From UHGV virus genome UHGV-1351279: a DNA stretch of 64,000 nucleotides. The stretch is one strand, 5' to 3'. The translations under genes and the position numbers were made by a program. Below are positions 8,601 to 31,246 of the stretch, one piece after another (the first letter of the stretch is position 1; every line of letters begins with the position of its first letter). The notes under the pieces are model-generated. The model ran no database searches, was not told where the DNA came from, and was given only the letters and a program-made list of their open reading frames with translations. This stretch comes from a virus.

Positions 8601-11600
8601 CTTGTTAGAGAATGGAAAAACAACTTTTTAAACTCTGAGCTATTCTTTGAGAAAGATGGTGAAAAGTATTATAACATGGAAAGGGTTGATCTTTTGAATA
8701 AAGAGATTAATAGCCTAAGAAATGACTATAAAGAACTATTAGTTGATAACCCTGAACATGTACAGAAACTTAATAGTGTATTAAGGAAACTTGGAATAAA
8801 CCTTTCTGAGAATACACTAAAAGAACTTCTATCTACAGAAGGTAATAATTTATTGAGTAATGTTGGTTCTTTAAGCCACATACAAAGAGTGTTATATGAA
8901 GTAAACAGTTTTTATCAAACACCAAGAAAAGACCCTAATACAGGTAAAGAAATACATATTAACCCTAAATATACAGATGAAGGTTTATCACTTTATGATG
9001 TTGAAGCTACTAATATAAGAAATAATTATGCTAACTTAGAGATTGATTTAAATGGTTCTATAATAGAAAAATCTTATAGGGTAGCAGGAAAGACTATTCA
9101 AGGTACTATACAAAAAATGATGGCTTATGATGCAGTATTTGAACTTAAAGATAGTAGTAACCCTAAAGCAGAACAATTATTACAAGTACCATATTCTTCA
9201 AGAAACTATATGCTTAGAATGATGGTTCCTGAAGATAGTAAAAAAGAAGATAGTGTTAGAAAAGCTGAAGAAATTAGAAATAGATTTGATATAGGATTTG
9301 TATCTCTTGAAGCTATTAAAGAAAGACATAAGAAAACATTTGGAAGTAGGAAAATTACAGATATTCCAGATACTGATAATGTATTAGCTCAACTTGGTTT
9401 CTTTCAAAATACAGTAAAGAAATTAACTCATAAGATACCTGGTTACAAGAGTTTATCTTTTAGATTAGCTAAAGTAATGAACCCAACTCTTTCTGATAAA
9501 AACCAAATGTTACTCTATGACATGGCTGTTGTAGATGTAACTAACTCTGTATTGTCTAATACTTTTGCTGATAAAGGTAATAAATATAATATAGGAGAGG
9601 ATTTATTAAACTTTCTTACAGACCAAATATTTGAATCAGAACTTGATAGAATCATTAGTTCCTTTAAGGAAAAGACTAATATAAAGAAGTATGATAAAGC
9701 AGCTCAATTCTTTTTAGCTTTCCCTGGTTTCAATACATTAGAACTCACTATGGAAGATGGTACTAAAATGTCCCTTATAGAGTTCTTACATATAAATAAA
9801 GGATTAGCAAAAGGTGAAGAAAATATAGCCATAAAAAGACCAGCTATAAGAGAAGCAGCAAAACAGTACTTAGCAGACCTTGTAAAAGAGAAGGTTAAGG
9901 ATAAAGTAAATTTTGACAATAACACAGGAGAATGGTTTGATAATAACTTTATTAGTTTTGATGAGAAAGGAGTAAATTTTGAGAATAATTTCCTTGATGA
10001 TTCATACCTTGCATCTAAGGTAAAAGGTTCTCCTGAAAAAAGTGTTGAGGTAGCAGCTTATGATTTTGTCATAAACAACATGTTAGCTCAAAATAATGTC
10101 TATCAAATGATAGCTGGAGATACAGCTTTATATTCTGAAAACCCTTCAAAATTTGCAGATAAAAAAGAGCCTAAAAACATAAGTAAGATAGACTTTGTAG
10201 GACTTGCTAAAAAAACTGCTGAAAATATAGATAAGCGTATGGCAATGTTAATAGCTCCAGGAAATAAATTAGCTAATAGTTTGCATGAGAAATATCTTCA
10301 AATTATGGTTAATGACCCTGTAACTATTACAAGTACTTCAAGACAACTCATAAAACAATACTATGGTGAGGTTACAAAAGAAAATGAACAGGTTATAGCA
10401 GCTATTGAGGAGTTTGAAGAAAAAGCTGAAAAAGCAAGAGGAGTGTATCTTGATGAATTAAGAAATGAATATAATAACAAGTATGTAAAAATCAATGATA
10501 AATTTGTATCAGTTGATAGTGATGGTGAAATACACTATTCAGACTCAATAGAAGCAGCAGAATCTTTAGGAAAAGTACTTAAAGGTGTTGATGGCTATCA
10601 AACCTTTTTAAAGGAAAATAATAAGGAAATAGGAGACTATTTTGATATAGAGGGTACAGATGCACAGGAGCTTACTACATGGCAGGAACACTTAGATATA
10701 TTACTAAGACAAGGAAGACTTACTGAAGAAGAAAGAAATGATATAAAAGCAGTATATGATAAACTTTCTAAAGGTGAGACCTTAGATTCTAAGGAACTTA
10801 AAGTGGTAATGCAACCTATAAAACCTGTATATGCAGGAAGTACTATAGTTAGAAATGATAAGAATGAACCTATAGTAAACAGAGTTACCTATATTAAGTC
10901 ATCTTCTTTTCCATTATTACCACAGCTTACAGCAGGTCTAAAGATAGATGCTGTGAGAAAACACATGGAAAAATTACAAGAACACCATAAAGGTAATAGG
11001 AAAGTAAGGCTATCCTTCCAAACAGCAAATAAAGTAGGTTCTATTGATTCTACTCTATCTATACATGACCTTTATAATAAAACATTTGATGAGCTATTCA
11101 ATAAAAGTACTTTACTTAATGATAATACTTTAGAGCTTGAAAGGAAACATTTTAAGATACAGCAGGATACTCCTTACAAGACAGATAAAAATATGGCTAA
11201 AGGTAAAGATGATTCTATTATTATGGGTTCTCAGATGTGGAAGATAATCTTAGGAAATGGTATCAATAAAATAGAAGAAGCTATATTTCCTAATACTTTT
11301 GATGCTGCTATCATTAATGAATATAACTCTCAAGTATCTGAGAAAGATAGGGTAGTTATAAACAGTACTAAGAGTAATCTTACAGGTAAAGACCTTGATA
11401 AAATAAAGAGTTATGTAGAGAATAAGTACATAAGGAATGAGAAAGATAAACTTTATAGACAATTAGGTTTAGACCCTGAGACTAATAGACCAAAAGATGA
11501 AGCAAAGTTCATGAAAACTTTGCAAGAACTTCTTATATCTGAAGCTAAGAGTAGAAATTATACTGATGGTCTTTTAGATGGCTTAGAAGTATTTGAAGAC

Positions 11601-14600
11601 TTAGAAAAGATAGATTTTAATATTCCTTTATGGTTATCATCAGGAAGTAATAAATTTGAAGCTTTACTTCAAGCTATCATATCTAACAGATTGATTGTGT
11701 TGAAGTTACCTGGAAACTCTCACTATACTTCCTCTTCTGAAGGTTTTAGCTTTAGAAAAGAAGATATAGTATCTTTAGAATCTATCAATGAAAATAAGAA
11801 GTCTGGAATAGTATGGTTAGACCCTAATCATACAGGAGAGTTAAGAGCTACTACTAATGAGAATGGAACTCTAAAAGAAGCTGAAGTGCTAATTCAAAGT
11901 AAGTTTAGAATTACTAAGGAAGATGGTACTACAGAGCTTATAGATTTAACTAAAACTCCTTATAGTGAAGAAGATAAAGCAACAGGTAAAAAGGTATTAA
12001 ATAAAGAAATGATAGACCAGGCATTACTCTCTATGTTTTCTTTCCGTATACCTACTTCATCACATCAGTCAGGAGCTATACTTAAAGTAGTAGGTTTCTT
12101 ACCTGAAGCAAGTGGAGACTTAATTGTAGTACCTAAAGAACATACTAAACAAATTGGGGAAGACTATGATATTGATAAGAGAAATATTTATAAGTCTAAT
12201 TATGTAGTAAGAGAAAATGGTAAGATAGAGAAACTTACTTCAGCTAATATTGAAGAAATAGTAAAAAAGAAGACTAAGAACTTACAGACACAAATTGATG
12301 CTTTGTATGATGCTGTTGGTAAAGAGTTTGCTAATAATAATAAAGTAAATGAAGATTTATCTTATTTAAGTATAGATGAACTTAGAGATATGGTTTATGA
12401 CGTCTTTGGTATAGATTTAGATGAAGAAGGTATTATAGATGATAAAGAGGTAAGAAAAGTTGCTAAAGAAAACATACTTAAAAAGAATGCTGAAAAGATT
12501 AAGACATTACATGATAGCAAACATAAATTACAGTGGAATAAATACTTTGTAGAAAAAACAACAAGAGAGAGCTTAGAAAAGAAACTCCTTGAAAATGCTA
12601 TGATTGATGTTTATAAGTCTGTATATCTAACTACTAATGATAAAGTACAAAAGAAGATAAATAAAGTTTTGTCTTTTGAAGTAGCTGGAGAAACTGCTAA
12701 ACTTATAGATAAGAAACTAAACTCAATGGAAAGTACTAAGTACTTTACTATATATGATGATTCTTATCAAAGGAAACTTATGAGATTAGGTTCTACAGGT
12801 AAATTAGGTATCTCTGTACATAGTAACACTGTAACTTTCTTATCTCAAATACAGAGGTTAGATAAACCTATTATAGTTAAGAGAACTGTTTATGATGAAA
12901 AAGGTAAACCCAGACTTGTAAACAGTGAAATGGAACTTGATGGTTTACCTTCTGATGGTACTTTAGGAGGATTTAATAATGAGTTCAAAACCCTTGATGG
13001 TATGAGACTTATTTCAGATGTAGTTGGAGAGAACCAAAACTCTGCTACAGATAATGTGAAAGCTCAAATCATGGGTAAGAGAAATGAAAATGCTTATACT
13101 ATTAATGTACTTACAATGCTTAATCTTAGAGGTTATGACATGACTAAGAATCCTGTAACATTAGATAATGGTAAAAAGCAACATTTACAGCTTACTTCTT
13201 TATTCTTATCTCAACCTATTCTTAGAAGATATGTGGAGTTACAAGAGAAGTATAAGTCTCTTACTTCTGGATATGTAAAAGATAAAGAAAATGAAATTAT
13301 AAGACAACTTATAAGAGAGTTTGATATTATAATTCCTGATAGTACTTTAAATAAGTTCAATAATGAAGGTGTTATTTTTAATGAAGAAGAACTCAGAATA
13401 CATGAAAAACAGATAACAGGTCAAGGTTTATACAATGGTCTTATAGATAATAAGAACACTCAAAATACAACTATGCAACTTGCTGTATTACAAACATTCT
13501 TAAATCTTAAAAGAGAATCTGAAGAAATAGGTGAATATCAGAAACTGATAAGTATGAACTCTACTAAACTTGGTATATCTTATTTCAACACCTTAGATAG
13601 AATAGAGATTTTAAGAAAATTGAATAATGAACAAAAGTTTGAAAATATCCAAAGCCTTGTAGGTGATTTTGAAGTAGTAGATTTTGACCTTCCTAATGAA
13701 GTAATTAAAGAGAGAATAAGAGAACTTAAAGATGATGGTTATGTATTGTTTAATTACATTACTCCTATTGCTATAAAGCCAACAACACCAGAAGGAACTA
13801 TGCTTATACACAGTTTGAAAACTTCTGAAAGTGTTTTTGATAAGTTGTATCCATATAAAAGTGCTACTGTAAAAGATATAATTGAAAAAATAACTGAGAT
13901 TGCTGGTAAGACAGACCTTAGAGGAGAGGCTTTAAATGATTTGAGATATACTATAATGCAGGAGTTTAAAGAGTTTATATACTCTTCTAAGAACAGTGGA
14001 TTATTTGAAGATGCTACAGTAAGAGAAGAAAGGGAAAGATTATTCTTTGACAGAGCAGGTAATGAATCTTTGGCTTCTTTTATAAACAGACTTCAAAAAA
14101 TGGACAATAACTTCCTGAAGAATAATGAGTTTATAAGAAGTTTACAAGCTGATGTAAGTCTTACAGGAGGTGTATCTACTATAAAGAACCTTTTTGAAGA
14201 GATGGATAAGTTCTCTCAAAGTAATAGATATAATGATTACTTGAAGATGCTTCAAGACAATGACACTATCATAGGAGAATGGAATGGTTATAAAGTAACT
14301 CCTTTCCAATTAGCTCAAGAATTAGCTACTTATGCTTACTTTGCTGACCAAGAAGGGGGTGCTACAGGGTTTAGAAATAACATCAATGCTAATTATCTTA
14401 ATGTTATAGGATTTTCTAAATATCTCAGAGATGTAAATAATGAAATATTTGGTACTATAGTTACTGATGCATTTTCTGATAAATTTGTGGAACAATTCTT
14501 TCAACATAATCCTGACCAAGCTATAACCCTTAGTCAAGATAAGTTAAAGAAACTTATAGGTGCTAAGGACAAGTTTGAAAGCATACTTATAAATAAAGGT

Positions 14601-16196
14601 TCAGAAGAAGCTTATAATCTTTGGAGGAGTAAGCCTAATAAAAGCACTTATAATGATTTTATAAATAAACTTAAAAGGTTTGAATCCCCTATTGATACAG
14701 ATAATAATGAAAAGACAGCACTTAGTGATAAGTATATTTCTATAAGGTATAATAGAGCAAATGGTAAGGCTTATAAACTATTTAAATTAGTAGATACTGA
14801 AATTACAGGAAGTGGTAGAGTACTTGTATATGAAGAGATAGCTGTTTTAGGTGATAATGGTTATAATGAGTATGATATGGAAGCTATTTATAATGATGGT
14901 TCTTTAAATCCTGTTGGAGATATAGAACCTGCTGAACCTATTATAAGTGCTAAACCTTTAGATTTATCTGAAATACAGGAAACTACTGTAGGAGAATTGT
15001 TAGGAGCTGTATTCCAGAAAGAAAGTAAGCTTAAAGACTTAATGAATGATTTATTACCTTTTATAGATAAAGATGTAAAAGTAATATTCTCTGATAACTA
15101 TAATGGTAAGAATGTATCTATAGCTACTTACATGTCTCAAGAAAATGTAATAGTAATCAATCCTATGATGAAGAATGATAATTTTGTCAAGAGACAACAA
15201 CAATTAGCTAAGTCTGAAAATTATATACAAGAGGTAGTTCTTGAAGAGATAATACACAGCATTACTGTTAGTGAATTAAGTAAATGGGGAGTAAGACAAA
15301 CTACTGAAGGAGGAAATCCTAAAGAGTTTAATTATGTAGTAAGAGATGATGCTCCTTTATATATCAAAAAGCTCAATGATTTATATGAATTAGCTAAATC
15401 TAAGATACCTTATGACCCAACAAATCATGCTACTTATCCTATGATGAATATTGCAGAGTTTGTAGCTGGTGTATTTTCTAATGGTAACTTCAGAGAACTC
15501 CTTGATAGTACTAAAGATGGGGGAGAAACATTACTTGATAAGTTTAGAAAACTCTTTAAGAATTTGATTACTTACTTAACAGGTAAGAAATACTCTGATG
15601 AGGTGATGACTACTGTTATGGAATTACTCAAAGCTAAAGGTAGAAGTACAGAGTTTGTAACTACAGATAGAAGTACCAAGGAGTTTAAGAAAGCTGAAGC
15701 AGCTGATAAAGTGAAGACTATTCTAAGACAACTTAAAGCTGAAGATGTTAATTTCAAAGATGAGTTATCACCATACTCTCCTAAGCAACTTAGTCAATAT
15801 GCTTACAGAAAAGCTTTCTCTGATAATATAATTAATGATTTGAAAGCTGGTAAGACAATATTTGTAAATGAGAAAAACAGTAGAAATAATGTTGAGAAAA
15901 AGTATATTCAAGATATTATAGACCTTATTTTAACTGTACCTGGAATGAATGAGGATAACAAAGGAGAAGCTATGGAATACAAAAAAGTAAGAAATGATTT
16001 GTATATGTTGAAAATAAAAGATACTTTTGCAGAGAAACTTGCTAAATTGGATTCTGTATCTCCAGAGAATTTTGATTACACAGGATTTAATTTACAGCAA
16101 GCTATAAATCATATTATGAAAGAGAACCCTTCATTTACAACAAAGGATTTAAAGAATAAATTAAAAGAAATTGGTCTTATAAAAGAAGATTGCTAA
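2670..16196 (+). CDS. giant hypothetical protein (4508 aa); putative virion-packaged or ejected protein
   Basis: 13.5-kb uninterrupted ORF. Has a K/E-rich coiled-coil segment (about nt 4790-5040) and a Pro/Thr-rich linker (about nt 7460-7520). Its stop overlaps the ATG of the next gene (TAATG). No DxDGD or other catalytic signature was found by eye. Confidence 0.7.
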   Translation: MEKPSNNDKKVALNSLFNAIDRTVQEDSRKRVGGHKTVRDLEKTLGIKANSISTYNDQMSEVKRLVGADAFVDTGIDYTQNLAANQSDSEAFTRGAAMLGKGFVSGALQSFASWDFGSIRDMATGDTSKEFGNALTESSLAKWAKDMTGLEIYQNGDDFGSSKYWARFIGQQGFTLGIMAEMALEQGLLAYVTGGAGNVAGAASKSRLIYNLLTGVNGLYGGVREAWMNGLETQENTYNKYIQLGFDQETAKKRASEAAAIGFRMEVGPIMLLNGIQSMATFGRFASKGLNKALEESMDFGVSSAVGKLGSIFEKSSNKFVRNAGMLFTDSVSEGVEEGYQTWAGNYAQDELQKRHLGFGTDEPFWNEEMRDSILMGALSGGMMAGFGKAVQKFGDWYSGRSKAINEATEAFMKDVTSNSVTAIKELNDASLAYQKAFETYNKDKTKDNRKAMNEAKKNLIIAQEKQGTAQVLEAMELDHLKGNENNEVFNAHIEQIDNAIKALQSNDTDKLKGLGFIDENGQSVTGLTNAEMIKMLQSDKDKALKTKKRFEDHYQHTTTDLGTIKKLVTIETKIDTFEEMKKEVEGKIGNYRNGNQVYSQLSEDGKELYGLYLRKNALEGLKERGGISKNQEVELDTINHKLQSIADANGKKNVNDLYSVQDANILRRDMIGIQAQQENYIEHYAYETEIDKLYESLEHNSKQDVIKQNIKERRKAQREAAKAVRDFNKLEREQEKERKRLEKEKAKAKNKEEKEKAQKEIDELAKEQKETQEKKDKAQKIESIENETGNKASDTEKEELINNGNFIYAEEDTAYKFDFEEGIVPEEPTKEPTETTDNAVEEAMSLKELIAKGLIKLGVPTPADVSPFDDDGVDIDANNEDFAFTPIDDSEPVIYTEPFEIIDFDANANLEGDFESRRETAIKFVQEILKELGLDEPDFEDYIKYFIDRKGKKITDDVFPGLVKMWELAGYSLDNVNSVYDKFFNTATAASDFALELMNNGTLVNKFNEGSEATAIASQAPVIATKGNKVIRDDRGTLGAGLEVIEDTATENPNPKAAHLGVKYETVTLPNGVKAKRYSEVELNNDPFIDNHLVLDKDFLSPGRVLDVRVAEDALVTVWDKDSNGNKIKKTVKFKDLGLQPGTPEYNAKVPIVAYYGDKPVFFLHDHEWYNRTNISNRHGMQDQIIKDGSRMINEVRRQILEGGKTQIKITDNLFGNMLNLSNAAREKDQQPITLNEASKGSQIVIAEKTNTIKAGGELVPTTDLVNDFEKNPLIPGAAYEIREIGDGKKILLSVASNRTGELDSMPDIGYNTVKFGIIAAFYLLNKNDSRFESTTAGITKKNNVVHPTIEIKNADGTVEKRIVTVKQKLESMGMTEDKAKKIADAIHIAYGIDILEDAHLLFELFTTTATGKTSKQQFFQNATNPNNKQKVILLPKKSSEGKISVNYHVKGYSTAPVTLSGKNLNAIEMKLNVKPDDQEGFISFFNFMNALFRPSKEDAEKGITKGAFSYNNFMPNDKQLGSEKTLVNITNNGEITSYQSTNGNSTYSDFAKDTLKTNIKSFEIEGADGNKKSILDIQPMIYYEVVDGEVTAPQATSAPNVTPITPTITPPKQEVNVGQVVTAAKEEGEQSDFTKRKAEALKSVEEMKKLIGTEVGGKIFTEEMYKNALDFALSEFNEDHDASVSITMNQYHLIQSTKNNRIDGISILEENELLNTLFYSTLERVNLNKHEVTLSSIQRSLYNSLKIIEESKEQFEIMAKINPVLASRMSARVEKLKAILNQKEKLIGKDGSLMIMLNRFFGEEIEFNEEALEDSDESIISIQDGDGTEKNYSESSLEKNVKITFSSSLKILLARVKAKNNQGTNKLNSLQLPMFEDIDNVVMTLQEVLVKGNSDFDFVLQELKNRGKSTRPNAQVYAELHRLFADAPKHIQNEILYKMTSDVLSMYMILMQEGAYNNYTKLALQNANSSASDIRLVREWKNNFLNSELFFEKDGEKYYNMERVDLLNKEINSLRNDYKELLVDNPEHVQKLNSVLRKLGINLSENTLKELLSTEGNNLLSNVGSLSHIQRVLYEVNSFYQTPRKDPNTGKEIHINPKYTDEGLSLYDVEATNIRNNYANLEIDLNGSIIEKSYRVAGKTIQGTIQKMMAYDAVFELKDSSNPKAEQLLQVPYSSRNYMLRMMVPEDSKKEDSVRKAEEIRNRFDIGFVSLEAIKERHKKTFGSRKITDIPDTDNVLAQLGFFQNTVKKLTHKIPGYKSLSFRLAKVMNPTLSDKNQMLLYDMAVVDVTNSVLSNTFADKGNKYNIGEDLLNFLTDQIFESELDRIISSFKEKTNIKKYDKAAQFFLAFPGFNTLELTMEDGTKMSLIEFLHINKGLAKGEENIAIKRPAIREAAKQYLADLVKEKVKDKVNFDNNTGEWFDNNFISFDEKGVNFENNFLDDSYLASKVKGSPEKSVEVAAYDFVINNMLAQNNVYQMIAGDTALYSENPSKFADKKEPKNISKIDFVGLAKKTAENIDKRMAMLIAPGNKLANSLHEKYLQIMVNDPVTITSTSRQLIKQYYGEVTKENEQVIAAIEEFEEKAEKARGVYLDELRNEYNNKYVKINDKFVSVDSDGEIHYSDSIEAAESLGKVLKGVDGYQTFLKENNKEIGDYFDIEGTDAQELTTWQEHLDILLRQGRLTEEERNDIKAVYDKLSKGETLDSKELKVVMQPIKPVYAGSTIVRNDKNEPIVNRVTYIKSSSFPLLPQLTAGLKIDAVRKHMEKLQEHHKGNRKVRLSFQTANKVGSIDSTLSIHDLYNKTFDELFNKSTLLNDNTLELERKHFKIQQDTPYKTDKNMAKGKDDSIIMGSQMWKIILGNGINKIEEAIFPNTFDAAIINEYNSQVSEKDRVVINSTKSNLTGKDLDKIKSYVENKYIRNEKDKLYRQLGLDPETNRPKDEAKFMKTLQELLISEAKSRNYTDGLLDGLEVFEDLEKIDFNIPLWLSSGSNKFEALLQAIISNRLIVLKLPGNSHYTSSSEGFSFRKEDIVSLESINENKKSGIVWLDPNHTGELRATTNENGTLKEAEVLIQSKFRITKEDGTTELIDLTKTPYSEEDKATGKKVLNKEMIDQALLSMFSFRIPTSSHQSGAILKVVGFLPEASGDLIVVPKEHTKQIGEDYDIDKRNIYKSNYVVRENGKIEKLTSANIEEIVKKKTKNLQTQIDALYDAVGKEFANNNKVNEDLSYLSIDELRDMVYDVFGIDLDEEGIIDDKEVRKVAKENILKKNAEKIKTLHDSKHKLQWNKYFVEKTTRESLEKKLLENAMIDVYKSVYLTTNDKVQKKINKVLSFEVAGETAKLIDKKLNSMESTKYFTIYDDSYQRKLMRLGSTGKLGISVHSNTVTFLSQIQRLDKPIIVKRTVYDEKGKPRLVNSEMELDGLPSDGTLGGFNNEFKTLDGMRLISDVVGENQNSATDNVKAQIMGKRNENAYTINVLTMLNLRGYDMTKNPVTLDNGKKQHLQLTSLFLSQPILRRYVELQEKYKSLTSGYVKDKENEIIRQLIREFDIIIPDSTLNKFNNEGVIFNEEELRIHEKQITGQGLYNGLIDNKNTQNTTMQLAVLQTFLNLKRESEEIGEYQKLISMNSTKLGISYFNTLDRIEILRKLNNEQKFENIQSLVGDFEVVDFDLPNEVIKERIRELKDDGYVLFNYITPIAIKPTTPEGTMLIHSLKTSESVFDKLYPYKSATVKDIIEKITEIAGKTDLRGEALNDLRYTIMQEFKEFIYSSKNSGLFEDATVREERERLFFDRAGNESLASFINRLQKMDNNFLKNNEFIRSLQADVSLTGGVSTIKNLFEEMDKFSQSNRYNDYLKMLQDNDTIIGEWNGYKVTPFQLAQELATYAYFADQEGGATGFRNNINANYLNVIGFSKYLRDVNNEIFGTIVTDAFSDKFVEQFFQHNPDQAITLSQDKLKKLIGAKDKFESILINKGSEEAYNLWRSKPNKSTYNDFINKLKRFESPIDTDNNEKTALSDKYISIRYNRANGKAYKLFKLVDTEITGSGRVLVYEEIAVLGDNGYNEYDMEAIYNDGSLNPVGDIEPAEPIISAKPLDLSEIQETTVGELLGAVFQKESKLKDLMNDLLPFIDKDVKVIFSDNYNGKNVSIATYMSQENVIVINPMMKNDNFVKRQQQLAKSENYIQEVVLEEIIHSITVSELSKWGVRQTTEGGNPKEFNYVVRDDAPLYIKKLNDLYELAKSKIPYDPTNHATYPMMNIAEFVAGVFSNGNFRELLDSTKDGGETLLDKFRKLFKNLITYLTGKKYSDEVMTTVMELLKAKGRSTEFVTTDRSTKEFKKAEAADKVKTILRQLKAEDVNFKDELSPYSPKQLSQYAYRKAFSDNIINDLKAGKTIFVNEKNSRNNVEKKYIQDIIDLILTVPGMNEDNKGEAMEYKKVRNDLYMLKIKDTFAEKLAKLDSVSPENFDYTGFNLQQAINHIMKENPSFTTKDLKNKLKEIGLIKEDC

Positions 16197-19100
16197 TGAG
16201 TACTTGTAAAGTAGAATTTAAAGGTTTTAATATTGATTCAAGTAGTTTAGATAACTACTTGAATCAATTTACCATTGATGGTAAACAAAAGATAGATGGG
16301 GCTAAAAACACCATAAGCTATTTATTAAGTAATGCAAAAGACAATAAGTTAGGAGTACTTAAACTTGCTCTTAACTCTAATAAAGCATACATTAAAGATT
16401 TAGCTAATATGATGCTTAATACTAATAGAAAATTCTATGCTGAGGTAGAGATAAACAACAACCTTAAAGGGTTTTCTAAGTATAATGCTAATGACAATAA
16501 AATCTATATCAATGTAGATGCTATATCACAGAGGTTTTCTGAAAGTGCAGAGGAATATTTGTATGAAAGAATAGTTCATGACTTTATACAAGGATTTGCA
16601 AATAGAGAGCTAAAAAAAGCATATGAAGATGCTAATAGAGACTCTCCTTATATGAAGAATATAATCAACTTGTTTAAAGAATATTCAAAGAGTGTAGACC
16701 TTAAGGAATATAATGTATTCAAGGATAGTGTAAATAAAGAACCTTTGTTGGACCCAAGAAGTGAAAGAAGTCTTATAAGAGAGGGTTATGCTGAAGAGAC
16801 TTACAGAGCTATTACTAATCCTGCTGAGTTCTTATCTTATGGTTTGTCTAATAGTGAGTTTAGAAATACACTGAGAAAGCAAAACTTATGGCAAAAGTTT
16901 GTTTCTTTGTTAAAAGACCTTTTAGGTATATCTCAAGATAATAATGACTTAGAGTACCTTTATAAAAACTTAGATAGTTATTTAAAACAAGATGACCCTT
17001 ATACATTACATAGTGGAGGTGCAATTGGAGCTGATACTGTTTGGGGCCAGATAGGTAAACAATTTGGTATATCAGAAGAAAATCAAAGACATTATAAAAC
17101 TGCTGATATGCCTAATGGTAATACTCAAATAACTGAGCAAGATTATAGAGAAGGTAGAAAAGAAGCAGCTAAAGCAGCTAATAGAATGTTTGGTTATGAC
17201 AAAACTGAAGTAAACATGGGTTTGCTTATAAGAAATTGGTCTCAAGTAAAATATTCTGAAGCTGTATATGCTGTTGGAAGATTAGTTCCAGCTGGAGAGA
17301 ATGCTTTTCCTGATAATAAAAAAGAAGATACAAGAATTGCAAAAAACCCTACTGTAACAGGAGGTACAGGTTATGCTGTAAATATGGCTATTCTTAATAA
17401 TAAACCTGTGTATGTATATAATCAGTATGACAATCCAACTTACCCAAAAGGTTGGTATAAATATGATTCTAATATAAATGATTATGTACCTACAGAGACA
17501 CCTACACTTACAAGACACTTTGCTGGTATAGGTACAAGAAATATCAATGAAGATGGTGAAAAAGCTATTCAAGATACTTATGAAAAAACTTTCAATAAAA
17601 AACAACAAACAGGTTCTCAGAGTAGTACAGATAGTAATATAAAAGTAGAACAACAAAATAGATATTCTGTACAAGATGTGAGAAATAATCCTGACAAAAT
17701 ATTTGTATTTGGTGATAACTCCATAAGACAAGGTACAGGAGGTCAAGCTCAAATAAGAAATGAGCCTAATGCAGTTGGTATAATGACTAAAAAGTTTCCA
17801 AGAAATACACCTGATGCCTTTTTATATGATAGTGAATATGCAGAAAATATTAAGAGAATAAATGAAGATATAGAGAACTTAAAGCAAAAAGTAAAAGGTA
17901 AAACTGTAGTTTTTCCTACAGATGGTATTGGTACTAATTTAGCTGATATAGCTCATACAGCACCAAGAACTATGGAGTATCTTATAAATAGATTAAGAGA
18001 AGAGTTTGGACTAAAAGATTCAGACCCTTTTATAAAATCTATGCTTAATAAACTAAATGAAGCAAGAAATGGTTTTGGACAAAAAATGCTTATAGATGGA
18101 GAAATTTATTCATATAATGTAGATAAATTAAAAGCTTATAAACACACATTTGTTGGTTCAGGTATAAATGCTAAACAAAATGCTACTGAAGTTACTGACC
18201 CTAATTTAATAAAAAAAATATCTGATAAGTATTTTGAAACAGATAATAATAATAATAATGAAAGTAATACATCCGATAAAGTAGATGATATATTAAATGA
18301 GTTTGAGTTTTTAAAAACAAATGACCCAGAGCAAAGTAAAGAAGTTGAGATATTAGAACCTTTTGGAGTGTTTCCAAAAAATACAGGTTTCCTAATTGTA
18401 CATACTCCAAGCGCAAAAGGTAATACTGTTGTTAGAATAAAAACAAAAGATGGTAAATACTATCAGTATGAAATAGTTAAAGTTGGTGCTGGTGAATCAG
18501 TTTCTGTTTTTAAGTTTGACAAAGAGGGTGATAGATATGTAAAAAAATCTTTAGAATTAAATGAAAAAAACTCTTTCATTAAAAGCTTTGTAATAAAATT
18601 TGTTGGAATAAGTAATGAGCAAGCAAACAGAGAGGATATAAAAAGTATCTTTACAAAAGCTTTAGCATTTTTGACTAATAAATCTAAGAATAAAGAAGGG
18701 TATAGAGAGCTACTCAATAATGAGTTTGTAAAGAGTGACTTGCTACACATACATAATGTAAATTTACAAGACACAATAGCACAAATTAATTCATTAAAAG
18801 CTGATGATAAAGTTGAAGTTGATAGGATTAATTATCTTTTAGATTATCTTACAAATGATTTAAATAACAACGATAAAATATGGTATTTTGGTAGGTATGC
18901 TGAAAATGATTTATTTGGTCTTTTAGTTAATGAAGAAAAACTTACAAAACTTTCATCAGAAGATGCACTCTTAAAGTATGAAGAACTTAAACAGCTATTA
19001 TCAAGAAAATTTAAAGAGCTTGTATATGATTACAATGGTGATGTAAAAAAATGGCTATTTTCTTTATTAGATGAAAAAGAATTAGATGGTGATTTACTGA

Positions 19101-21592
19101 ACAAGTTAAGAGAGTTGAGAGGTGATGAAGAAACAATAACTCCTACACAACCTACACCTCCTCCAGCACCAAAAGAACGTTATGGAGAAGAATTTCAAGT
19201 AGACCAATTTGTATTTTCTTATAATCCTGAGACAGGTAAGTACTATCAGCATTTTAAATCTAAAAAAGGAGAAGTAAAAGAACTTACTAATGAAAAGCAA
19301 CAAAACAAAACTTTTTTAAAGTACATAGAAAAACACCCTGAGCATGCTGAAATAGTAACTTATGAAAATACAGGTAATAAATATGTTTATGATAAGAAAA
19401 GAGATAAAGTAATATCTTTATCTACAGCAGACACCATAGTTCAACCTGATATTGTTGATAAAGTAAAAAACCATGAAAAATACGCAAGGGAAGAAAAGAT
19501 AGAAGGTTTAAAGAAATACATAAAACAATATTTAAAAGATTTCAAGGATATGTCTTTTGCAAGACTTTATCAATTATTGATTAATCAAGGTACTATAACT
19601 CATGAAGATGCACATGATTTTTCTGAAGCTTTTAATCAAGCTCAACAAGAAATAAATGAAGAAAAAAATACAAGAGTCTATAAATTAAAAAGCCAACTCC
19701 CCAGTGATGTATTAGAGTATTTAAAAAATACAATAAGTGAGTACTATGATAAAAATGATAGCAAAGATGTAAACACTATCTACAGAGATTTTATGAAATC
19801 CCGTGAAGGTAAGAATGGAGGTTTTATATTTGATGTACATGGTTTGGGTAGTTTTAATATACATAATGATATATTTACAGAGCTTTTTAAAGAAATAAAA
19901 AAAGAAAAAGAGCTTGAAAAAGAAGCTAAAAAACCCCCTCAATATGAACACTCATTTTCTTACAAAGGTATAACAATACCTACTAAATTTCAATTATCAG
20001 AAGAGCAAGAACAGGCTCTTATAACTCTTATAGAAAATATTACAAGTGGAGATACAGAACCTATAACTTTAAGTGGCTATGCTGGTACTGGCAAAACTTC
20101 TGTGATAGGATATTTGGAAGATTATTTAAAAAGGAAAAGAGGTTATAAATTTCTTTATGGCGCACCTACACATGCTGCTACACTATATTTAGGTTATAAC
20201 ACTAAGAAAATGCCTTTTACAATTGCTTCTTCTGTTGTAAAAAGAATAGATGATTTTGGTAATGTAACTTACACAACATCTTCAAAAGTTGACCAAGCAT
20301 TATCAGACTACGACCAGAATATCTTTGTAGTAGATGAAGTTTCTCTAATGGATTCAACCACTATGGATAATTTCCTTTCTGTAATGGATAGAAAAGGTGT
20401 AAAAGTTATATTCATGGGGGATAAAATGCAATTACCTGAAGTAGCATCTAAAGGAAAAATAAACCCTGAAACAAAAAATTCTATAAAAGATGTTTCTAAG
20501 GCTTTTACTGATTTTAAATTAATACAATTATCTCAAGTACAAAGAACAAAAGATAACTCAATTTTGAGGGTTCTAACAGAGATTAGGAATAATCCTGATG
20601 GTGTATTACCTGTTGTAGATAATACAGAGACTCTACAGTTTTTTAATAAAGATGATAACACTAAAGGTTTTTACAAAGGGTTTAGAACAGCTTATGAAGC
20701 AGACCCTGAAGAAGCTATTTATATTACTTATACCAATGAAGATGTAAAGAACTTCAATAAATCTTTTAGAAAAGCTTTTTATGGTGAAGATGTAGATGGC
20801 TTAGTTGAAGGTGAATCTGTAATAGGATACTCTGGTTACAACAATAAAAAGATTAAGTCAAATGACTTAGCAAACAGTATAAAATACACTGTAGATGATA
20901 TTAGTTATGATGGTTCTGAAGTAAAAATAACATTAAAATCTAATGCTATACAAAAATTAGCTGATTTGCATTCACCAAATAGAGAGAATGATAAAACTGT
21001 ACAAACTACTTATTTACAGATGTCCAGAACAGACTCTTTAGATATGAAAAATCTTACAGATAAAGATTTTTTAAAGAATAATAGTAAACTATCTGAAATA
21101 TTTAGAGATGTCTATGATTTGAAGAAGATGGCTTTAGGAACAAACAGATGGAAAGATTTTAGTGAGACACTTGCTAAGATTACAGGGGGACTTGCTAAAT
21201 TAGAGATTGGAGATGATTATTTCTACAATCCATATACAAATATGATGGAAAAAGAAAGCTCTGTAAATTGGTCTAATCCTCAAATGGCTAATCTAAAAAA
21301 GAATTATAAAGAGCTTTTTATGAGTAAGAGTATTGACTATGGTTATGGTATAACTATACATAAAGCACAAGGAGCTACTTATAAGAATGTATTCTTTAAT
21401 TCTACATCAACGGAATTTGCTAAAACAGAAATCCATGAAAATGGAATGCAAATAAGTACAGAAGGTAACTCTCTTAACTATGTAGCTATGTCAAGAGCAA
21501 GTGAGAAACTTTTTGTTCTTCACTCTAATAATATAAAAAGATTAAACAATGATGACTCTATAGAGTTGTCAAAAAATTGCAGTGTATTCTAA
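16196..21592 (+). CDS. multidomain giant protein (about 1798 aa): N-terminal Rossmann-like (SLOG/LOG-DprA-like) glycine-loop modules plus a C-terminal Dda/RecD-like SF1B helicase
   Basis: The ATG at 16196 overlaps the upstream stop; the ORF track's start at 16190 is a TTG. N-terminal modules: HSGGAIGADTVWGQIG ... TGGTGYAVNMAILNNKPVYVYN (about nt 17000-17430) and KIFVFGDNSIRQGTGGQAQ (about nt 17690-17960). C-terminal helicase motifs: Walker A SGYAGTGKTS, Walker B VDEVSLMD, GDKMQLPE, and GYGITIHKAQGATY. Confidence 0.7.
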   Translation: MSTCKVEFKGFNIDSSSLDNYLNQFTIDGKQKIDGAKNTISYLLSNAKDNKLGVLKLALNSNKAYIKDLANMMLNTNRKFYAEVEINNNLKGFSKYNANDNKIYINVDAISQRFSESAEEYLYERIVHDFIQGFANRELKKAYEDANRDSPYMKNIINLFKEYSKSVDLKEYNVFKDSVNKEPLLDPRSERSLIREGYAEETYRAITNPAEFLSYGLSNSEFRNTLRKQNLWQKFVSLLKDLLGISQDNNDLEYLYKNLDSYLKQDDPYTLHSGGAIGADTVWGQIGKQFGISEENQRHYKTADMPNGNTQITEQDYREGRKEAAKAANRMFGYDKTEVNMGLLIRNWSQVKYSEAVYAVGRLVPAGENAFPDNKKEDTRIAKNPTVTGGTGYAVNMAILNNKPVYVYNQYDNPTYPKGWYKYDSNINDYVPTETPTLTRHFAGIGTRNINEDGEKAIQDTYEKTFNKKQQTGSQSSTDSNIKVEQQNRYSVQDVRNNPDKIFVFGDNSIRQGTGGQAQIRNEPNAVGIMTKKFPRNTPDAFLYDSEYAENIKRINEDIENLKQKVKGKTVVFPTDGIGTNLADIAHTAPRTMEYLINRLREEFGLKDSDPFIKSMLNKLNEARNGFGQKMLIDGEIYSYNVDKLKAYKHTFVGSGINAKQNATEVTDPNLIKKISDKYFETDNNNNNESNTSDKVDDILNEFEFLKTNDPEQSKEVEILEPFGVFPKNTGFLIVHTPSAKGNTVVRIKTKDGKYYQYEIVKVGAGESVSVFKFDKEGDRYVKKSLELNEKNSFIKSFVIKFVGISNEQANREDIKSIFTKALAFLTNKSKNKEGYRELLNNEFVKSDLLHIHNVNLQDTIAQINSLKADDKVEVDRINYLLDYLTNDLNNNDKIWYFGRYAENDLFGLLVNEEKLTKLSSEDALLKYEELKQLLSRKFKELVYDYNGDVKKWLFSLLDEKELDGDLLNKLRELRGDEETITPTQPTPPPAPKERYGEEFQVDQFVFSYNPETGKYYQHFKSKKGEVKELTNEKQQNKTFLKYIEKHPEHAEIVTYENTGNKYVYDKKRDKVISLSTADTIVQPDIVDKVKNHEKYAREEKIEGLKKYIKQYLKDFKDMSFARLYQLLINQGTITHEDAHDFSEAFNQAQQEINEEKNTRVYKLKSQLPSDVLEYLKNTISEYYDKNDSKDVNTIYRDFMKSREGKNGGFIFDVHGLGSFNIHNDIFTELFKEIKKEKELEKEAKKPPQYEHSFSYKGITIPTKFQLSEEQEQALITLIENITSGDTEPITLSGYAGTGKTSVIGYLEDYLKRKRGYKFLYGAPTHAATLYLGYNTKKMPFTIASSVVKRIDDFGNVTYTTSSKVDQALSDYDQNIFVVDEVSLMDSTTMDNFLSVMDRKGVKVIFMGDKMQLPEVASKGKINPETKNSIKDVSKAFTDFKLIQLSQVQRTKDNSILRVLTEIRNNPDGVLPVVDNTETLQFFNKDDNTKGFYKGFRTAYEADPEEAIYITYTNEDVKNFNKSFRKAFYGEDVDGLVEGESVIGYSGYNNKKIKSNDLANSIKYTVDDISYDGSEVKITLKSNAIQKLADLHSPNRENDKTVQTTYLQMSRTDSLDMKNLTDKDFLKNNSKLSEIFRDVYDLKKMALGTNRWKDFSETLAKITGGLAKLEIGDDYFYNPYTNMMEKESSVNWSNPQMANLKKNYKELFMSKSIDYGYGITIHKAQGATYKNVFFNSTSTEFAKTEIHENGMQISTEGNSLNYVAMSRASEKLFVLHSNNIKRLNNDDSIELSKNCSVF
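19960..21592 (+). other. SF1B (Dda/RecD/Pif1-like) helicase domain inside the 1798-aa protein
   Basis: About 45-50% identical by eye to the free-standing helicase at 29675-31246, from YKGITIPTKFQLSEEQ through LNYVAMSRASEKLFVL. Confidence 0.7.
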
Positions 21593-21603: not shown

Positions 21604-24600
21604 ATGTCTTGTAAAAATACAGTCTTAAACAGTAATAGTAGAAATGTAGTGATGAAAGGTCTTTATGAAAAAGACCTTATCACTGCCTATAAGAATGTTG
21701 GTAATACAACAATAATACAAGTATCTAACATTAAGGATTTCAATAAAAGGAATCAACTTTTAATAGATAAAATACAGGAATTACAACCTCAATTTTTATC
21801 TTCTTTTGGAAGTATGTATAACACCACTCCAACAGAATTATTCTTTGATAAAGTAAATGGTAGTCAAGAACAATTTGCTATAAAGAATTATATGTTTGAA
21901 AGGCTATCTAACTTTAAAATGGTAGATTTTAATAAGCTACAAGAAACTTTAGATAGCTTAGGTAAAATAGCTGTACAAGTATCAAATGGTAATATAGAAA
22001 TTAGAAACCATAAAATACACGGTTTTACTAAAGAAGAAGTAGATGCTATAGTAAAAAAGTATAATACACTTTCTTCTGAAAAACAACAATACATAAAAGA
22101 TGAAATTAGAAATAGTAGAAATATTGTAGATAAAGTAGCTTCAAAACTTTATGATGCTTATGAAGATAGACTTAACCTAATTACTGATATTGATTCAAAT
22201 TCAATGAGAATAGGTAATAAAAACTCTAATAATATTATTAAAGTAAAATCTAAGGAAGTTGAATCTAATAGAGAGCTTCAAGAAATAAAAGATGAAGTAG
22301 CTAATAATAAAGCTAAGGAACTTACAAGAAAAAACACTGAGGATAGCAATAAAAGGAGTAATGATTATAATACTGATGGTGATATATTGCCTTCAAATGA
22401 TAATTGGGACTCAAACTCTGACCCTAATATTACACCTCCTGTAACAGATAATTATACAGAATATACAAATTACTTAGATGCACTACTAAAAAGTGTACAG
22501 AAAAAGAAAGGTGAGTTAATAAAAGAACTCAAAAATCCAAAAAACAAGAATAAAACTAAGACTATTGATGACCTAAATAAGCTAATAACTGAAGAGGGTA
22601 AATTACAAGAGTACTATAATAATGCTATATCTGGTGAAAATGAGAAAAATGTAGAGACATTATTTAATGAATTAGATGATTTGTCTCATAAACTTGATGT
22701 AATAGATAGTGGTAGCATAAAGAATCTTGGAGATAGGGTTGATTTCCTTTTTGGATTTATTACAGGTACAAAATATGGAAGCAATGAAAATGTTGATTAT
22801 GCAATAAGTGAGAATCCTGAACTTAGGTCTAAGGTACTTTCTCTAATGCATAAATATAATAGTAAGCTCAATGAAATATCTAATAAAATCATTGAAGAAG
22901 ATGTTACTTATCAACATAATGTACTTAATAATATTGCATTTAAAAGAGCTGATGGTAAAATAGACAAAGATAAGGTAAATGATTTATTTAAAGTAAAAGA
23001 TGATATAAACTTTTTTGAGAAAGCCCTTTTAGGGGTATCTCAAGCAAGTACTAAAGAATCTATTACTCCTCAAATATTAAAGTCATACCTTGAAAAAAAT
23101 ATGTCTCATAGGACATCTGAAGCTATTGCTTATAAGGATAGATTATTAGCTGCTATTGAGAAATTAGAAGCAAAAGGTATTACTGATTTTAGCTTTATAT
23201 TTGAGAAATTTTTATCAGGAGCAAGAACAGGTAATATCATTAGTAAATATACTTCTGAGTATAGGAGAAAGCTTTATAAATACTTTAATATGGAAGTTGA
23301 GGGTAATGACTATGCTTCTTATTATAGTAAGAAAATACAATGGCTAAAGGCTAATGCTGATGTTATAGACTTTAGAAAAATAAAGGCTTTTAAAGACCTT
23401 TATGGTAAGAACTATCCTAATGAATTTATCTTCTCTGACCAGGAAATGGAAGAATATGAAAATAATCTTAGAAAACAACTTGGTAAAGTGTATGATAAAG
23501 AGATAGACAAAGTAAATAGTTGGATAGAAAATTATGAGCTTACTAAGCAAAATTATGAATCTAAATATGAAGCAGAGAGAAATAACCCTTTTGTATTTCT
23601 AAGGTCTTATTTTGGAGATTCTCCAACTACAGCAGCTGCATTTAATGGTACAGGAGGTATATCAAGTATATTTCCTAACCTTAATGATATTGTATTTGTA
23701 CCAAGAAAAACCTTTACTGAGGGCTATGACTTTAATGGAGAAGAAATAACCTCTGATACAGGCTATTATAATAAAGACTTTGATAGAATTGAACAGTCTG
23801 ATGAAATGTTTGAGTATTGGTCTGTATTAGAAGATATATATTCTCAATACATAAATCCTACCTATGACATATCAGGAATGAGCTTTGCTAAGATACAAAA
23901 GGAGTTTCTCGAAAAAGTAAGTGATGCAAAAGGTGCTTCTAAAGCAGGTACTCTAATATCTAAAGGTATACAAGCTTATAGAGAGTATTTCTATGAAGTA
24001 GGTGTAGGTAATAAGAAAGATAAAGGTATTGTAGAGAACTATTCTGATAAGACAAAACAAGAAATAAAGGCTCTATCATCAGCTCTAAAAGCTAAATCTG
24101 TTGATGAGCTTAAATCTATGGCAAAAGATTTAGGTCTTACTATACCTAATAACATAACACCAGAGCAATTAGTTCATGAGATTGCAAGTGAAATGACTTT
24201 AAGGAATTATTCTTCTGATATTAATAAGATAACAGGGGCTTTAATTGATATGGTAGCTTTACAAAAAGCCAGAGAAGATACTTTACCTATAGCTAATATC
24301 TTACTTGAGAAACATAAGAAAACTGTAGGAGAAAGTGAAAGGGAGAGAAAAAATAGTATTGAGAAATTAGAACACTATATCAATAAAGTAATTAAGAATG
24401 AGCATGAGCATGCAAGAGGTACAGAACAACTAATAGGTAAAGAGATTAAAACACCTGGTTGGATAGAGATGTTACTTGATAAATTAGGTGTTATAGGTTG
24501 GCTTAAAAATAAAGTAGAAAAGAATAGGTTCTTTTACCTTTATAGTGATTCAGAAAGACAATTATTAAAAGAACTCCAGAGTGCAAGAGAAAGAGGTCAT

Positions 24601-26616: not shown

Positions 26617-26633
26617 AAAAAATAAAGAAGATG

Positions 26634-26668
26634 GATAAAAAACCATCTTCTTTATTTGTGTATTAATT
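26634..26668 (+). terminator. intrinsic terminator of the + strand operon
   Basis: Stem aaagaagatgg / ccatcttcttt with loop ataaaaaa, followed by tatttgtgtatt. It lies 18 nt after the stop of the 1670-aa gene. Confidence 0.75.
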
Positions 26669-26726
26669 TTAATTTTCTTACTTTTGCACAAGGAATTTTT
26701 CTTATTTTTCGTTTTGCCACTTGTAA

Positions 26727-26762
26727 GAGTGTTAGAGGTATCTAACACTCTTTTTCTTTATA
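26727..26762 (+). terminator. second hairpin (perfect 11-bp stem, 4-nt loop) followed by a T-run on the + strand
   Basis: agagtgttaga-ggta-tctaacactct then ttttctttat. It overlaps the 3' end of the convergent - strand gene, so the two arms share a back-to-back terminator region. Confidence 0.6.
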
Positions 26763-29674: not shown

Positions 29675-31246
29675 TTAATTTAAGTGTTTTACTTTACTTC
29701 CATATAGTACAAAGAGTTTCTTAGAAGCTCTACTCATACCTACGTAATTTAAAGAGTTACCCTCTGTACCTACTTGTATATTTCTTTCCATTAAAGGGTT
29801 TGTATTAACTTCTGTAGAAAGAGAGTTGAAGAATATATTACTATAAGTGGCACCTTGAGATTTATGAATAGTAATACCATACCCATAATCTATACCTTTC
29901 TCAATAATAAGTTCTGGAAATTCTTTTCTAACCCTTTCATGTGTAGGATTGTGAGAAGAATATAATTCCATTCTATCATTGGCTGGTACATAAATATAAG
30001 TGTTACCTAAGTCTATACTTTTAAAAGCACTTGTTAGGTCATCTATACGAGAATAATAGTTCTTCCAATTATTAGTTGCTATAGCATTTACTTTAGCATT
30101 GTATATCTTCTTGAAAAGATTGCTAATAATTCTATTATTATTTTCATACATCTCCTTTGTAATCTCTTTAAATACAATACTATCTTTTTCAGATAAAGGG
30201 TAATAAGTAGTACTCATGTTAGAAAGTTCTTCATTAATCATACTTAGTACCTTTGAATACCCTGCTATAAATACAAAAGAGTCTTTAAATCTAACATCAG
30301 TTACTTGAAACTTTACAGAGTTAGCAAGGTTACCATTTACAATATTCTTATTATTATAACCTCCATAACCTATAATACTTTCTCCAACATGTAATCCATA
30401 AATATCTTCATAGAGTACTTCTTTTACCTTTTTATTGAATGCTTGTATGGATTGATTAGTGTAACTTACAAACACAGTATTTTCAGGTTCTTCTTTATAT
30501 AATTCTATGAATTTTTCAAAGAACTCTGCTTTTTGTCCTGCATTATAATAAGTAACAGTTTCTGTATTATCTATGATAGGGAGTACACCTGTTGGATTAC
30601 TCCTTATCTCTGTAAGTATTTTAAGTATACTTGCATCTTCTGTCCTCTTTACCTCTGTTAATTGTACAAGTTTGAACTTAGTAAATACATCAGATACATA
30701 CTTATTTTTATCCTTTGTAATCTCAGGTATCTGAGCTTTATCTCCCATGAAAACAATATTTACTTTCTTAGCAGTCATAAGCCTTACTAAATCTTCAACA
30801 TCTTTTCTTGATAACATAGAACTCTCATCTACAATAAGAACATTATTTTTATAAGGGTCTAAAGCACTTGTAAATTTAGAACTAAGCTTTTTTTCAAAAG
30901 TTCTTGTTTTTCCATTGTACATATTAACCATAATACTTTGTATAGTATAAGGAAGAAAACCTAAATTTAGCCCTAAATATACAGTTGCTGCATGTGTTGG
31001 AGCAGCATATATAAAGTTAAATCCAGAGAACATGTCTCTATTAAACTTCTTTTTCATGTATTTTTGTAAATACCTTATTACTGAAGTCTTACCAGTACCT
31101 GCATACCCTGATAAAGTGATAGGGGTAGTCTCATTTATTACATGGTCTATAATTTCTTTAAGGGCATTGTCTTGCTCCTGAGTTAATTTGAATTTTGTAG
31201 GTATAGAAATACCTTTATATTCAAAAAAGTTACCTTCTCTTGTCAT
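29675..31246 (-). CDS. Dda/RecD-like SF1B DNA helicase
   Basis: Walker A SGYAGTGKTS, Walker B VDESSM, GDKAQIPE, VKRTED, and GYGITIHKSQGATY (UvrD_C_2-type motif). Paralog of the C-terminus of the 1798-aa protein. Confidence 0.75.
   Translation of the reverse strand: MTREGNFFEYKGISIPTKFKLTQEQDNALKEIIDHVINETTPITLSGYAGTGKTSVIRYLQKYMKKKFNRDMFSGFNFIYAAPTHAATVYLGLNLGFLPYTIQSIMVNMYNGKTRTFEKKLSSKFTSALDPYKNNVLIVDESSMLSRKDVEDLVRLMTAKKVNIVFMGDKAQIPEITKDKNKYVSDVFTKFKLVQLTEVKRTEDASILKILTEIRSNPTGVLPIIDNTETVTYYNAGQKAEFFEKFIELYKEEPENTVFVSYTNQSIQAFNKKVKEVLYEDIYGLHVGESIIGYGGYNNKNIVNGNLANSVKFQVTDVRFKDSFVFIAGYSKVLSMINEELSNMSTTYYPLSEKDSIVFKEITKEMYENNNRIISNLFKKIYNAKVNAIATNNWKNYYSRIDDLTSAFKSIDLGNTYIYVPANDRMELYSSHNPTHERVRKEFPELIIEKGIDYGYGITIHKSQGATYSNIFFNSLSTEVNTNPLMERNIQVGTEGNSLNYVGMSRASKKLFVLYGSKVKHLN

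Follow-up and report, generated by a model that had tools for sequence, protein, structure and literature searches.

CrAss-like phages are among the most abundant known viruses. Cellulophaga phage phi14:2 packages its RNA polymerase gp66 in the virion, from which it is translocated, and the particles contain gp65 and gp67 as well (bioRxiv 10.1101/2020.03.07.982082); gp45-gp50 of crAss001 were seen in virions by mass spectrometry (PMC10172136). Transcription by gp66 is good on single-stranded or denatured DNA and poor on double-stranded DNA, and its structural relative QDE-1 requires a helicase, QDE-3 (bioRxiv 10.1101/2020.03.07.982082). In the virion RNA polymerase (vRNAP, gp50) of phage N4, a C1 subdomain bearing an HExxH motif has been described within the C-terminal domain (PMC13434306), and the corresponding region is reported to be necessary for encapsidation (PMC5512222). 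Two further protein classes come close to the subject of this study: polyvalent proteins, known from phages and from conjugative elements, which in phages are large multidomain proteins that unite several independent enzymatic modules and are encoded among virion genes (Iyer, Burroughs, Anand, de Souza, Aravind 2017; PMC5512222), and sporadic phage fusions of SLOG domains to superfamily 1 (SF1) helicases, for which regulation by ligand sensing has been proposed (Iyer et al. 2022, Viruses; PMC9503650). Here, we analyse a giant gene in a 64,000-nucleotide (nt) stretch of UHGV virus genome UHGV-1351279 (“the window”), which encodes a protein of 1798 amino acids (aa) that shares traits with all of these systems. 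On balance, it is probably an accessory, modular polyvalent cargo protein of the vRNAP block of a crAss-like phage related to Flavobacterium phage FpV4, presumably packaged in the virion and ejected from it.

In the list of open reading frames (ORFs) the gene extends from a TTG (16190..21592, +); the ATG at 16196 gives the 1798-aa product of ~207 kDa, and a contig of 97,240 bp encodes an identical database protein, P0001. At the nucleotide level, the gene matched none of 50,697 phage records. Coordinates and motifs given by a previous sequence-only reading were all recovered in the translation, including HSGGAIGADTVWG, TGGTGYAVNMAILNNKPVYV and KIFVFGDNSIRQGTGGQAQ. The protein is laid out as follows:

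16196..21592, + strand: whole ORF, 1798 aa; ATG overlapping the upstream stop
16196..16996, +: N-terminal zincin-like domain, aa 1-267; kept in all orthologues; predicted from alignment A1, profile matches and an AlphaFold2 (AF2) model
16577..16591, +: degenerate metal-binding motif H128-D-F-I-Q132, aligned to the HExxH of paralogous copies
16997..17635, +: SLOG-superfamily domain, aa 268-480; motifs HSGGAxGAD, RNWSQVK, GGTGYAV and FAGIGTR; swappable cassette
17651..17989, +: DUF7831 (PF25176), aa 486-598; small alpha/beta domain with motifs FGDN...GxGG and P-x-DGIGT; swappable cassette assigned with Pfam and phrog_2072
18248..19180, +: orphan segment, aa 685-995; no homologue and no Pfam match
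19163..19591, +: conserved linker, aa ~990-1132, ahead of the helicase in nearly all orthologues
19937..21592, +: superfamily 1B (SF1B; Dda/RecD/Pif1-like) helicase, aa 1248-1798; Walker A, Walker B, motif III and motif VI intact
20084..20101, +: Walker A GTGKTS, aa 1297-1302; intein site in orthologues (between G1297 and T1298), intein-free in the window copy

Annotation with Pfam, which the sequence-only reading had proposed as a check, assigned the helicase and DUF7831 and left aa 1-267 (without a PHROG family match as well) and the orphan segment unassigned. For the latter, the search found no homologue even in ~90%-identical orthologues, a search that also failed to return the protein itself. 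With at least four predicted modules in one polypeptide encoded within a vRNAP/cargo block, the protein has the domain count and the genomic setting of polyvalent proteins. Further points of resemblance are a zincin-like domain such as that noted in the N4 vRNAP and a domain content that differs between close relatives. However, SLOG domains, SF1 helicases and NADAR are absent from the published account (PMC5512222), the peptidase motif appears dead here, the Pfam family MPTase-PolyVal is not matched, and the host block is that of a crAss-type vRNAP.

The N-terminal domain provides a tie to virion RNA polymerases. Its HDFIQ (aa 128-132) aligns with HETIH or HEYIH in second copies of the domain inside P0004, P0028 and P0029 (alignment A1); other N-terminal copies carry HDFIR or KEIVV, the internal paralogous copies retain HETIH or HEYIH, and the HExxH region of vRNAPs reads HEVIH, HELIH or HEVVH. 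With HDFIQ in place of HExxH, the catalytic activity of the domain is predicted to be lost. While a word-indexed search with the N-terminal alignment returned one fragment only, an index-free search of 1.84 billion representatives with the A1 profile yielded 173 proteins, mostly of 1000-6000 aa, with the domain in an internal position. The top non-orthologues, P0070 (E = 1e-23) and P0071 (E = 1e-21), belong to phrog_16227 and are vRNAP homologues of the FpV4 gp32 type, and another match bears the PHROG of N4-type virion RNA polymerases. The same profile matched FpV4 gp32 at aa 3951-4193 (E = 6e-8, HEVIH) and the HExxH regions of the N4-like vRNAPs of Klebsiella phage Pylas (1.2e-4) and Alteromonas phage PT15-A5 (5.6e-3), E-values that come from a small local database and are not comparable with the library-wide ones. 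Among solved structures, the best match was 9sfn_G, an “internal virion protein” (E = 0.008), and it spans HEAVH together with a common ...LW..F......LLG motif. The N4 vRNAP itself (11fw_A) was matched weakly (E = 1.9), in what would be the HExxH-bearing C1 subdomain, provided that the deposited chain begins near N4 residue 1000. The AF2 model of the domain consists of three short strands followed by a long, motif-bearing helix, and the only local matches in a fold search (Foldseek against the PDB) were minigluzincins (minimal gluzincins; probability 0.6-0.8). By homology, aa 1-267 are thus predicted to be a zincin-like domain characteristic of FpV4-like and N4-like virion RNA polymerases, inactive as a peptidase in this protein. 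In likeness to N4 gp50, the profile aligns at the HExxH region and two N4-like vRNAPs carry the same SLOG domain (see below), whereas the 1798-aa protein lacks an RNA polymerase domain and its HExxH is degenerate. The possibility that the domain arose by gene fission, as the detached C-terminal zincin domain of the neighbouring vRNAP homologue, was rejected because that 4508-aa protein retains a degenerate copy of its own (LEEIIH, aligned with HEVIH of FpV4 gp32).

At the other end of the protein, the helicase motifs follow each other in order: GTGKTS (aa 1297-1302), DEVS (aa 1380-1383), GDKMQL (aa 1408-1413) and IHKAQGATY (aa 1721-1729). The Pfam models AAA_30 (1.3e-20), PIF1 (9e-13) and UvrD_C_2 match, as do the PHROG of Dda-like helicases, phrog_325 (4.5e-56), and the structure of T4 Dda, 3upu (4.5e-8). 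Thus, as the sequence-only reading had it, aa 1248-1798 are by motifs and family models a complete SF1B Dda-like helicase, with predicted 5'-3' unwinding. PADLOC recognized the helicase only, as a match to candidate system PDC-M16A, and an NCBIfam scan gave only sub-threshold matches to relaxase and RecD helicase. T4 Dda is a stand-alone protein of ~440 aa that is made inside the infected cell. It shares the core helicase motifs and the PHROG family with the window protein, in which, unlike in T4, this core forms the C-terminus of a 1798-aa product of the virion block, and a second, stand-alone copy is present. This second helicase, a product of the replication module, and the C-terminal helicase of the giant protein share 44% identity (E = 1e-142); the two are therefore paralogues, both of which are kept by the phage.

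Six orthologues (P0003, P0007, P0014, P0015, P0019, P0025) carry inserts at one and the same site in Walker A. The junctions, read in five of the six, are those of canonical inteins between G1297 and T1298 (Cys1 ... HN|T; GYAG|C...HN|TGKTS); four of these inteins are 331 aa long, with Pfam homing-endonuclease and LAGLIDADG matches on those proteins, and one is a mini-intein of 142 aa. Splicing would restore GYAGTGKTS, which suggests that the Walker-A ATPase site is maintained. An SF1B helicase is also joined to a vRNAP outside this family: gp059 of the crAss-like phage cr50_1 (NC_055868.1, 2833-17157) is a 4774-aa vRNAP homologue that ends in such a helicase (AAA_30 at aa 4249-4448). As this domain is only 27% identical to the helicase of the giant protein, the two associations with a vRNAP look independent.

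Comparison of the giant protein with its relatives reveals which parts are fixed. The N-terminal domain and the helicase are common to 25 close relatives, most of which also have the linker; identities are mostly 78-98%, in a few cases 32-69%, and orthologue lengths range from 1025 to 1798 aa. Both SLOG and DUF7831 are present in the window protein, P0002 and P0018, SLOG only in P0004-P0008, DUF7831 only in P0003 and P0009-P0016, and neither in P0017 and P0019-P0026. All four combinations were found on chassis that are 86-98% identical, and in P0004 a copy of the zincin-like domain with intact HExxH is an additional cassette. The comparison thus shows a fixed chassis of the predicted dead zincin-like domain, the linker and the SF1B helicase, whereas SLOG, DUF7831, the HExxH peptidase copy, orphan segments and inteins are optional and have been gained or lost between near-identical phages. 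The gene family appears to be a natural site of cassette exchange.

The sequence-only reading had proposed two SLOG-like Rossmann modules upstream of the helicase, of which the first stands. AF2 models aa 268-480 with high confidence as a Rossmannoid domain, which supports the SLOG call, and the PHROG “DprA-like” matches aa 266-413 (E = 2e-7); the fold, the glycine-rich loop and the likeness to LOG, DprA, YpsA and the MoCo carrier all place module 1 in the SLOG superfamily. Its identity as a DprA/Smf recombination mediator, which would call for a match to the DprA family model (Pfam DNA_processg_A), for DprA-specific extra domains and for RecA loading, was rejected. Structure 3imk is a member of the circularly permuted YpsA-like clade. 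This placement agrees with the observation that viral SLOGs are mostly YpsA-like (PMC9503650). The second module does not hold up as a SLOG: it is DUF7831 (aa 486-598; E = 4.5e-38, 130.2 bits against a cut-off of 27), for which hhalign gave a probability of 0.3% of relation to the SLOG domain and fold searches returned no match, leaving it without an assignable fold. A profile of SLOG plus DUF7831 produced only noise against PDB sequences, and a literature search on DUF7831 turned up nothing published.

The SLOG domain recurs on many unrelated carriers. Among vRNAPs, aa 984-1205 of the N4-like enzyme of Pylas (9049-20508) match it with 36% identity, and it lies at ~aa 1096-1251 of that of PT15-A5 (5713-16200); going by N4 domain boundaries, these positions would be near the junction between the N-terminal and polymerase domains. 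In the crAss-like phage cr113_1, the same SLOG forms the C-terminus of gp38 (NC_055896.1, 1-9789), a 4328-aa vRNAP homologue. Read with the standard bacterial code, gp38 is interrupted by 49 in-frame stop codons, which fits the stop-codon reassignment described for the phage group. Elsewhere, SLOG is a stand-alone gene in huge phages or is accompanied in large proteins by NADAR, DUF1848, an AlkB-like domain, HD or Toprim. Two of the genes for SLOG-bearing large proteins, P0037 and P0053, were checked for their position, and each follows giant genes. Several independent SLOG + SF1B proteins were found as well (P0027-P0036, P0040, P0052, P0053). Besides, on a 144-kb metagenomic contig whose giant block includes a protein with helicase and SLOG, the last giant gene (15500-19981, 1493 aa) bears a PD-(D/E)XK nuclease domain.

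The gene sits among the following neighbours in the AT-rich window (~29% GC):

257..2668, +: 803-aa product of the gene that opens the giant block within the window; homologue of FpV4 gp31 (N-terminal part)
2670..16196, +: 4508-aa crAss-type vRNAP homologue, upstream neighbour, identified with PHROG and tblastn; DYDID at aa 3167 and its own degenerate zincin-like motif near the C-terminus
21604..26616, +: 1670-aa product, downstream neighbour and last of the block; homologue of FpV4 gp33
26620..26752, no strand assigned: two long terminator-like hairpins (26620-26657 and 26725-26752) in the 115-nt convergent gap between the giant block and the minus-strand genes, where the giant-gene transcription unit ends
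29675..31246, -: stand-alone Dda-like helicase of the replication module, 523 aa

As claimed by the sequence-only reading, the gene lies inside an operon of giant genes, being the third in a co-directional run of 803-, 4508-, 1798- and 1670-aa ORFs on the plus strand. The TAA that ends the 4508-aa ORF and the ATG of this gene overlap (TAATG), 11 nt separate its own stop from the next gene, and no terminator-like site was found on the plus strand inside the block before the hairpins at 26620-26752. A scan for sigma-70 promoters performed no better than on shuffled sequences. After the block, the strand switches and the replication module follows.

The upstream neighbour matches phrog_16227, “virion structural protein” (E = 2.6e-176), and is 28% identical over ~2700 aa to FpV4 gp32. 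It also matches the catalytic RNA polymerase subunit g066 of phi14:2 (E = 1e-16) and the RNA polymerase proteins of crAssphage and crAss002, with DYDID at aa 3167 falling within the region aligned to the phi14:2 and crAss enzymes. A phmmer search of the 4508-aa protein against PDB sequences found no match, and its identity as an RNA polymerase rests on tblastn and PHROG. The order in the window, i.e., vRNAP homologue, 1798-aa gene, gp33 homologue and strand switch, has parallels elsewhere, as the same slot is occupied by the 1026-aa orthologue P0020 and by the distant homologue P0028. Because counterparts of FpV4 gp31-gp33 flank the gene and FpV4 has no counterpart of the 1798-aa ORF itself, it is an accessory gene, inserted behind that of the vRNAP and ahead of the final gene of the block. 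With the known crAss-like cargo proteins (phi14:2 gp65-gp67 and crAss001 gp45-gp50) the protein shares the genomic block, the strand, the giant size and an upstream neighbour homologous to a packaged RNA polymerase. It differs from them in that FpV4, phi14:2 and crAss001 have no homologue of it and that it is, unlike them, a putative virion protein; moreover, no helicase is named among the cargo proteins of crAss001 (PMC10172136). Among the papers listed by a literature search on FpV4, none was proteomic.

Several observations converge on packaging, and the case, though strengthened by them, is still circumstantial: the neighbour is a homologue of a packaged RNA polymerase, the N-terminal domain family occurs in virion RNA polymerases and in an internal virion protein, SLOG is found in N4-like and crAss-like vRNAPs, an SF1B helicase is fused to the cr50_1 vRNAP, and the phage has a separate Dda-like helicase for replication. 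We therefore favour a scenario in which the 1798-aa protein would be made together with the vRNAP, packaged in the cargo zone of the capsid and ejected along with the DNA. A handle for assembly or packaging might be provided by the dead zincin-like domain, which is the best candidate because its family otherwise occurs in packaged RNA polymerases and the N4 region is reported to be needed for encapsidation. On entry, the 5'-3' helicase could act on the incoming genome, either by opening the duplex so that the crAss-type vRNAP, with its preference for a single-stranded template, can begin early transcription, or by stripping host proteins from the DNA. Clearing or protecting the DNA would be the remaining alternative roles. 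Action on behalf of the vRNAP is favoured, since gp66 prefers single-stranded templates, QDE-1 requires a helicase and SF1B helicases have been joined to the gene or the polypeptide of a vRNAP in two lineages, apparently independently. SLOG and DUF7831, in turn, might act independently on nucleotide-derived molecules, e.g., immune signals derived from NAD+ or ADP-ribose, before phage genes are expressed. As the two are optional on the chassis and recurrent on unrelated carriers, it can be argued that they have no obligatory regulatory role for the helicase, and we favour them as putative autonomous, nucleotide-directed counter-defence enzymes or binders. A counter-defence role was proposed for viral sets of SLOG, NADAR and Macro domains (PMC9503650).

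A bolder and more complete proposal, which we consider unlikely to be right in all its parts, is that of a virion-delivered helicase chassis co-ejected with a crAss-type RNA polymerase. Its Dda-type motor would supply the single-stranded template, as a counterpart to QDE-1/QDE-3, and thus couple genome entry to early transcription. Plug-in modules (SLOG and DUF7831 here; NADAR, AlkB-like, DUF1848 and an intact peptidase in relatives) would neutralize nucleotide-based immunity prior to expression, and the dead zincin would be a capsid-loading signal common to virion RNA polymerases.

A number of points weigh against packaging and against the proposed roles of the modules. The N-terminal model is of moderate confidence (pLDDT 75) and has no significant Foldseek match in the PDB, Pfam MPTase-PolyVal is not matched by this domain even at E = 10, and the copies with an intact HExxH reach only sub-threshold similarity to SprT-like proteins (7e-4 to 3e-3). 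In cr50_1, the helicase fused to the vRNAP is the sole Dda-like helicase detectable in the 98.8-kb genome, in which a second one was looked for, so that the fusion may carry the replication function and the argument that the vRNAP-associated helicase is always an extra copy is weakened. A protein that stays out of the capsid would fit a late or middle operon just as well. Such a gene is missing from FpV4, phi14:2 and most crAss-like phages and must therefore be dispensable for vRNAP function in general. Lastly, the substrates of SLOG and DUF7831 are putative, and fold searches with DUF7831 gave no match.

Among the alternatives, the one that survives best, albeit as an unlikely one, is a non-packaged protein of replication, recombination or repair, in which a duplicated Dda-type helicase and a DprA-like (SLOG) module for single-stranded DNA binding or recombination mediation act in the cell on phage DNA that is being replicated or recombined. 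The close paralogy of the helicase to that of the replication module and the situation in cr50_1 speak for it. However, the gene is part of the vRNAP/cargo block on the strand opposite to the replication genes, the phage retains its separate Dda-like helicase, many orthologues dispense with SLOG altogether, and the N-terminal domain is of the vRNAP type.

Considerably more doubtful is a sensor-regulated helicase, in which SLOG would perceive host signals derived from NAD+ or ADP-ribose and switch the helicase on or off. The published SLOG-SF1 fusions are the closest precedent: both modules reside in one polypeptide, NADAR co-occurs with SLOG in relatives, SLOG is read as a sensor that regulates its partner (PMC9503650), and the several independent SLOG + SF1B proteins fit this idea. 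In the family described here, by contrast, SLOG is an optional cassette on a chassis that is independent of it, near-identical orthologues without SLOG retain an intact helicase, and ~770 residues with two other modules lie between SLOG and the helicase. Moreover, the same SLOG is joined to unrelated partners, including NADAR, DUF1848 and, in a further departure from the published cases, virion RNA polymerases.

P1 DarB consists of an N6-adenine methyltransferase and an SF2 (DExH) helicase. The sequence-only reading had likened the window protein to it. In an injected anti-restriction protein of this kind, the helicase would shield the incoming DNA in cis against restriction endonucleases by coating it or by translocating along it. 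The giant size, the helicase, the presumed action on entering DNA, the cargo nature that the neighbouring proteins have in model phages, and the polyvalent-protein concept, which includes DarB (PMC5512222), all speak for this reading. It is nevertheless about as doubtful as the sensor-regulated helicase, as the likeness is one of analogy only, with no homology detected, no methyltransferase, an SF1B instead of an SF2 helicase, no sequence feature that points specifically at restriction enzymes, and partner modules (SLOG; NADAR in relatives) that suggest nucleotide or ADP-ribose chemistry (PMC9503650).

Polyvalent proteins (PMC5512222), phage SLOG-SF1 fusions (PMC9503650) and crAss-like cargo proteins (PMC10172136; bioRxiv 10.1101/2020.03.07.982082) have all been published, and the present advance is incremental unless packaging and function are established. 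What is new, to our knowledge, is this chassis in FpV4-related crAss-like phages, in a slot right behind the vRNAP gene; the identification of a predicted dead zincin domain of the vRNAP type at its N-terminus; the fast turnover of cassettes, including DUF7831; and the use of vRNAP-helicase and vRNAP-SLOG fusions as linking evidence. A helicase is genetically tied to a virion RNA polymerase, adjacent to it in the window and, with a helicase of the same class, fused to it in cr50_1. The family could thus provide a handle on how the injected crAss RNA polymerase obtains a usable template and on how host immunity is pre-empted. Its optional modules, SLOG and DUF7831, are good candidates for counter-defence, as are NADAR, AlkB-like domains and DUF1848 in other SLOG-carrying giant proteins. 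DUF7831 is placed in a first context, and the zincin-like domain now identified as associated with vRNAPs may be a packaging signal.

Two minor observations concern the minus-strand genes of the window. The ORFs of 379 aa (39815-40954, -) and 415 aa (40875-42122, -) overlap by 80 nt, possibly owing to a miscalled start or a frameshift; the 379-aa product matches two PHROGs of unknown function, the 415-aa product none. In the 364-aa product of 49187-50281 (-), the best match to thymidylate synthase, one of two matching stretches, lies in the C-terminal 150 residues.

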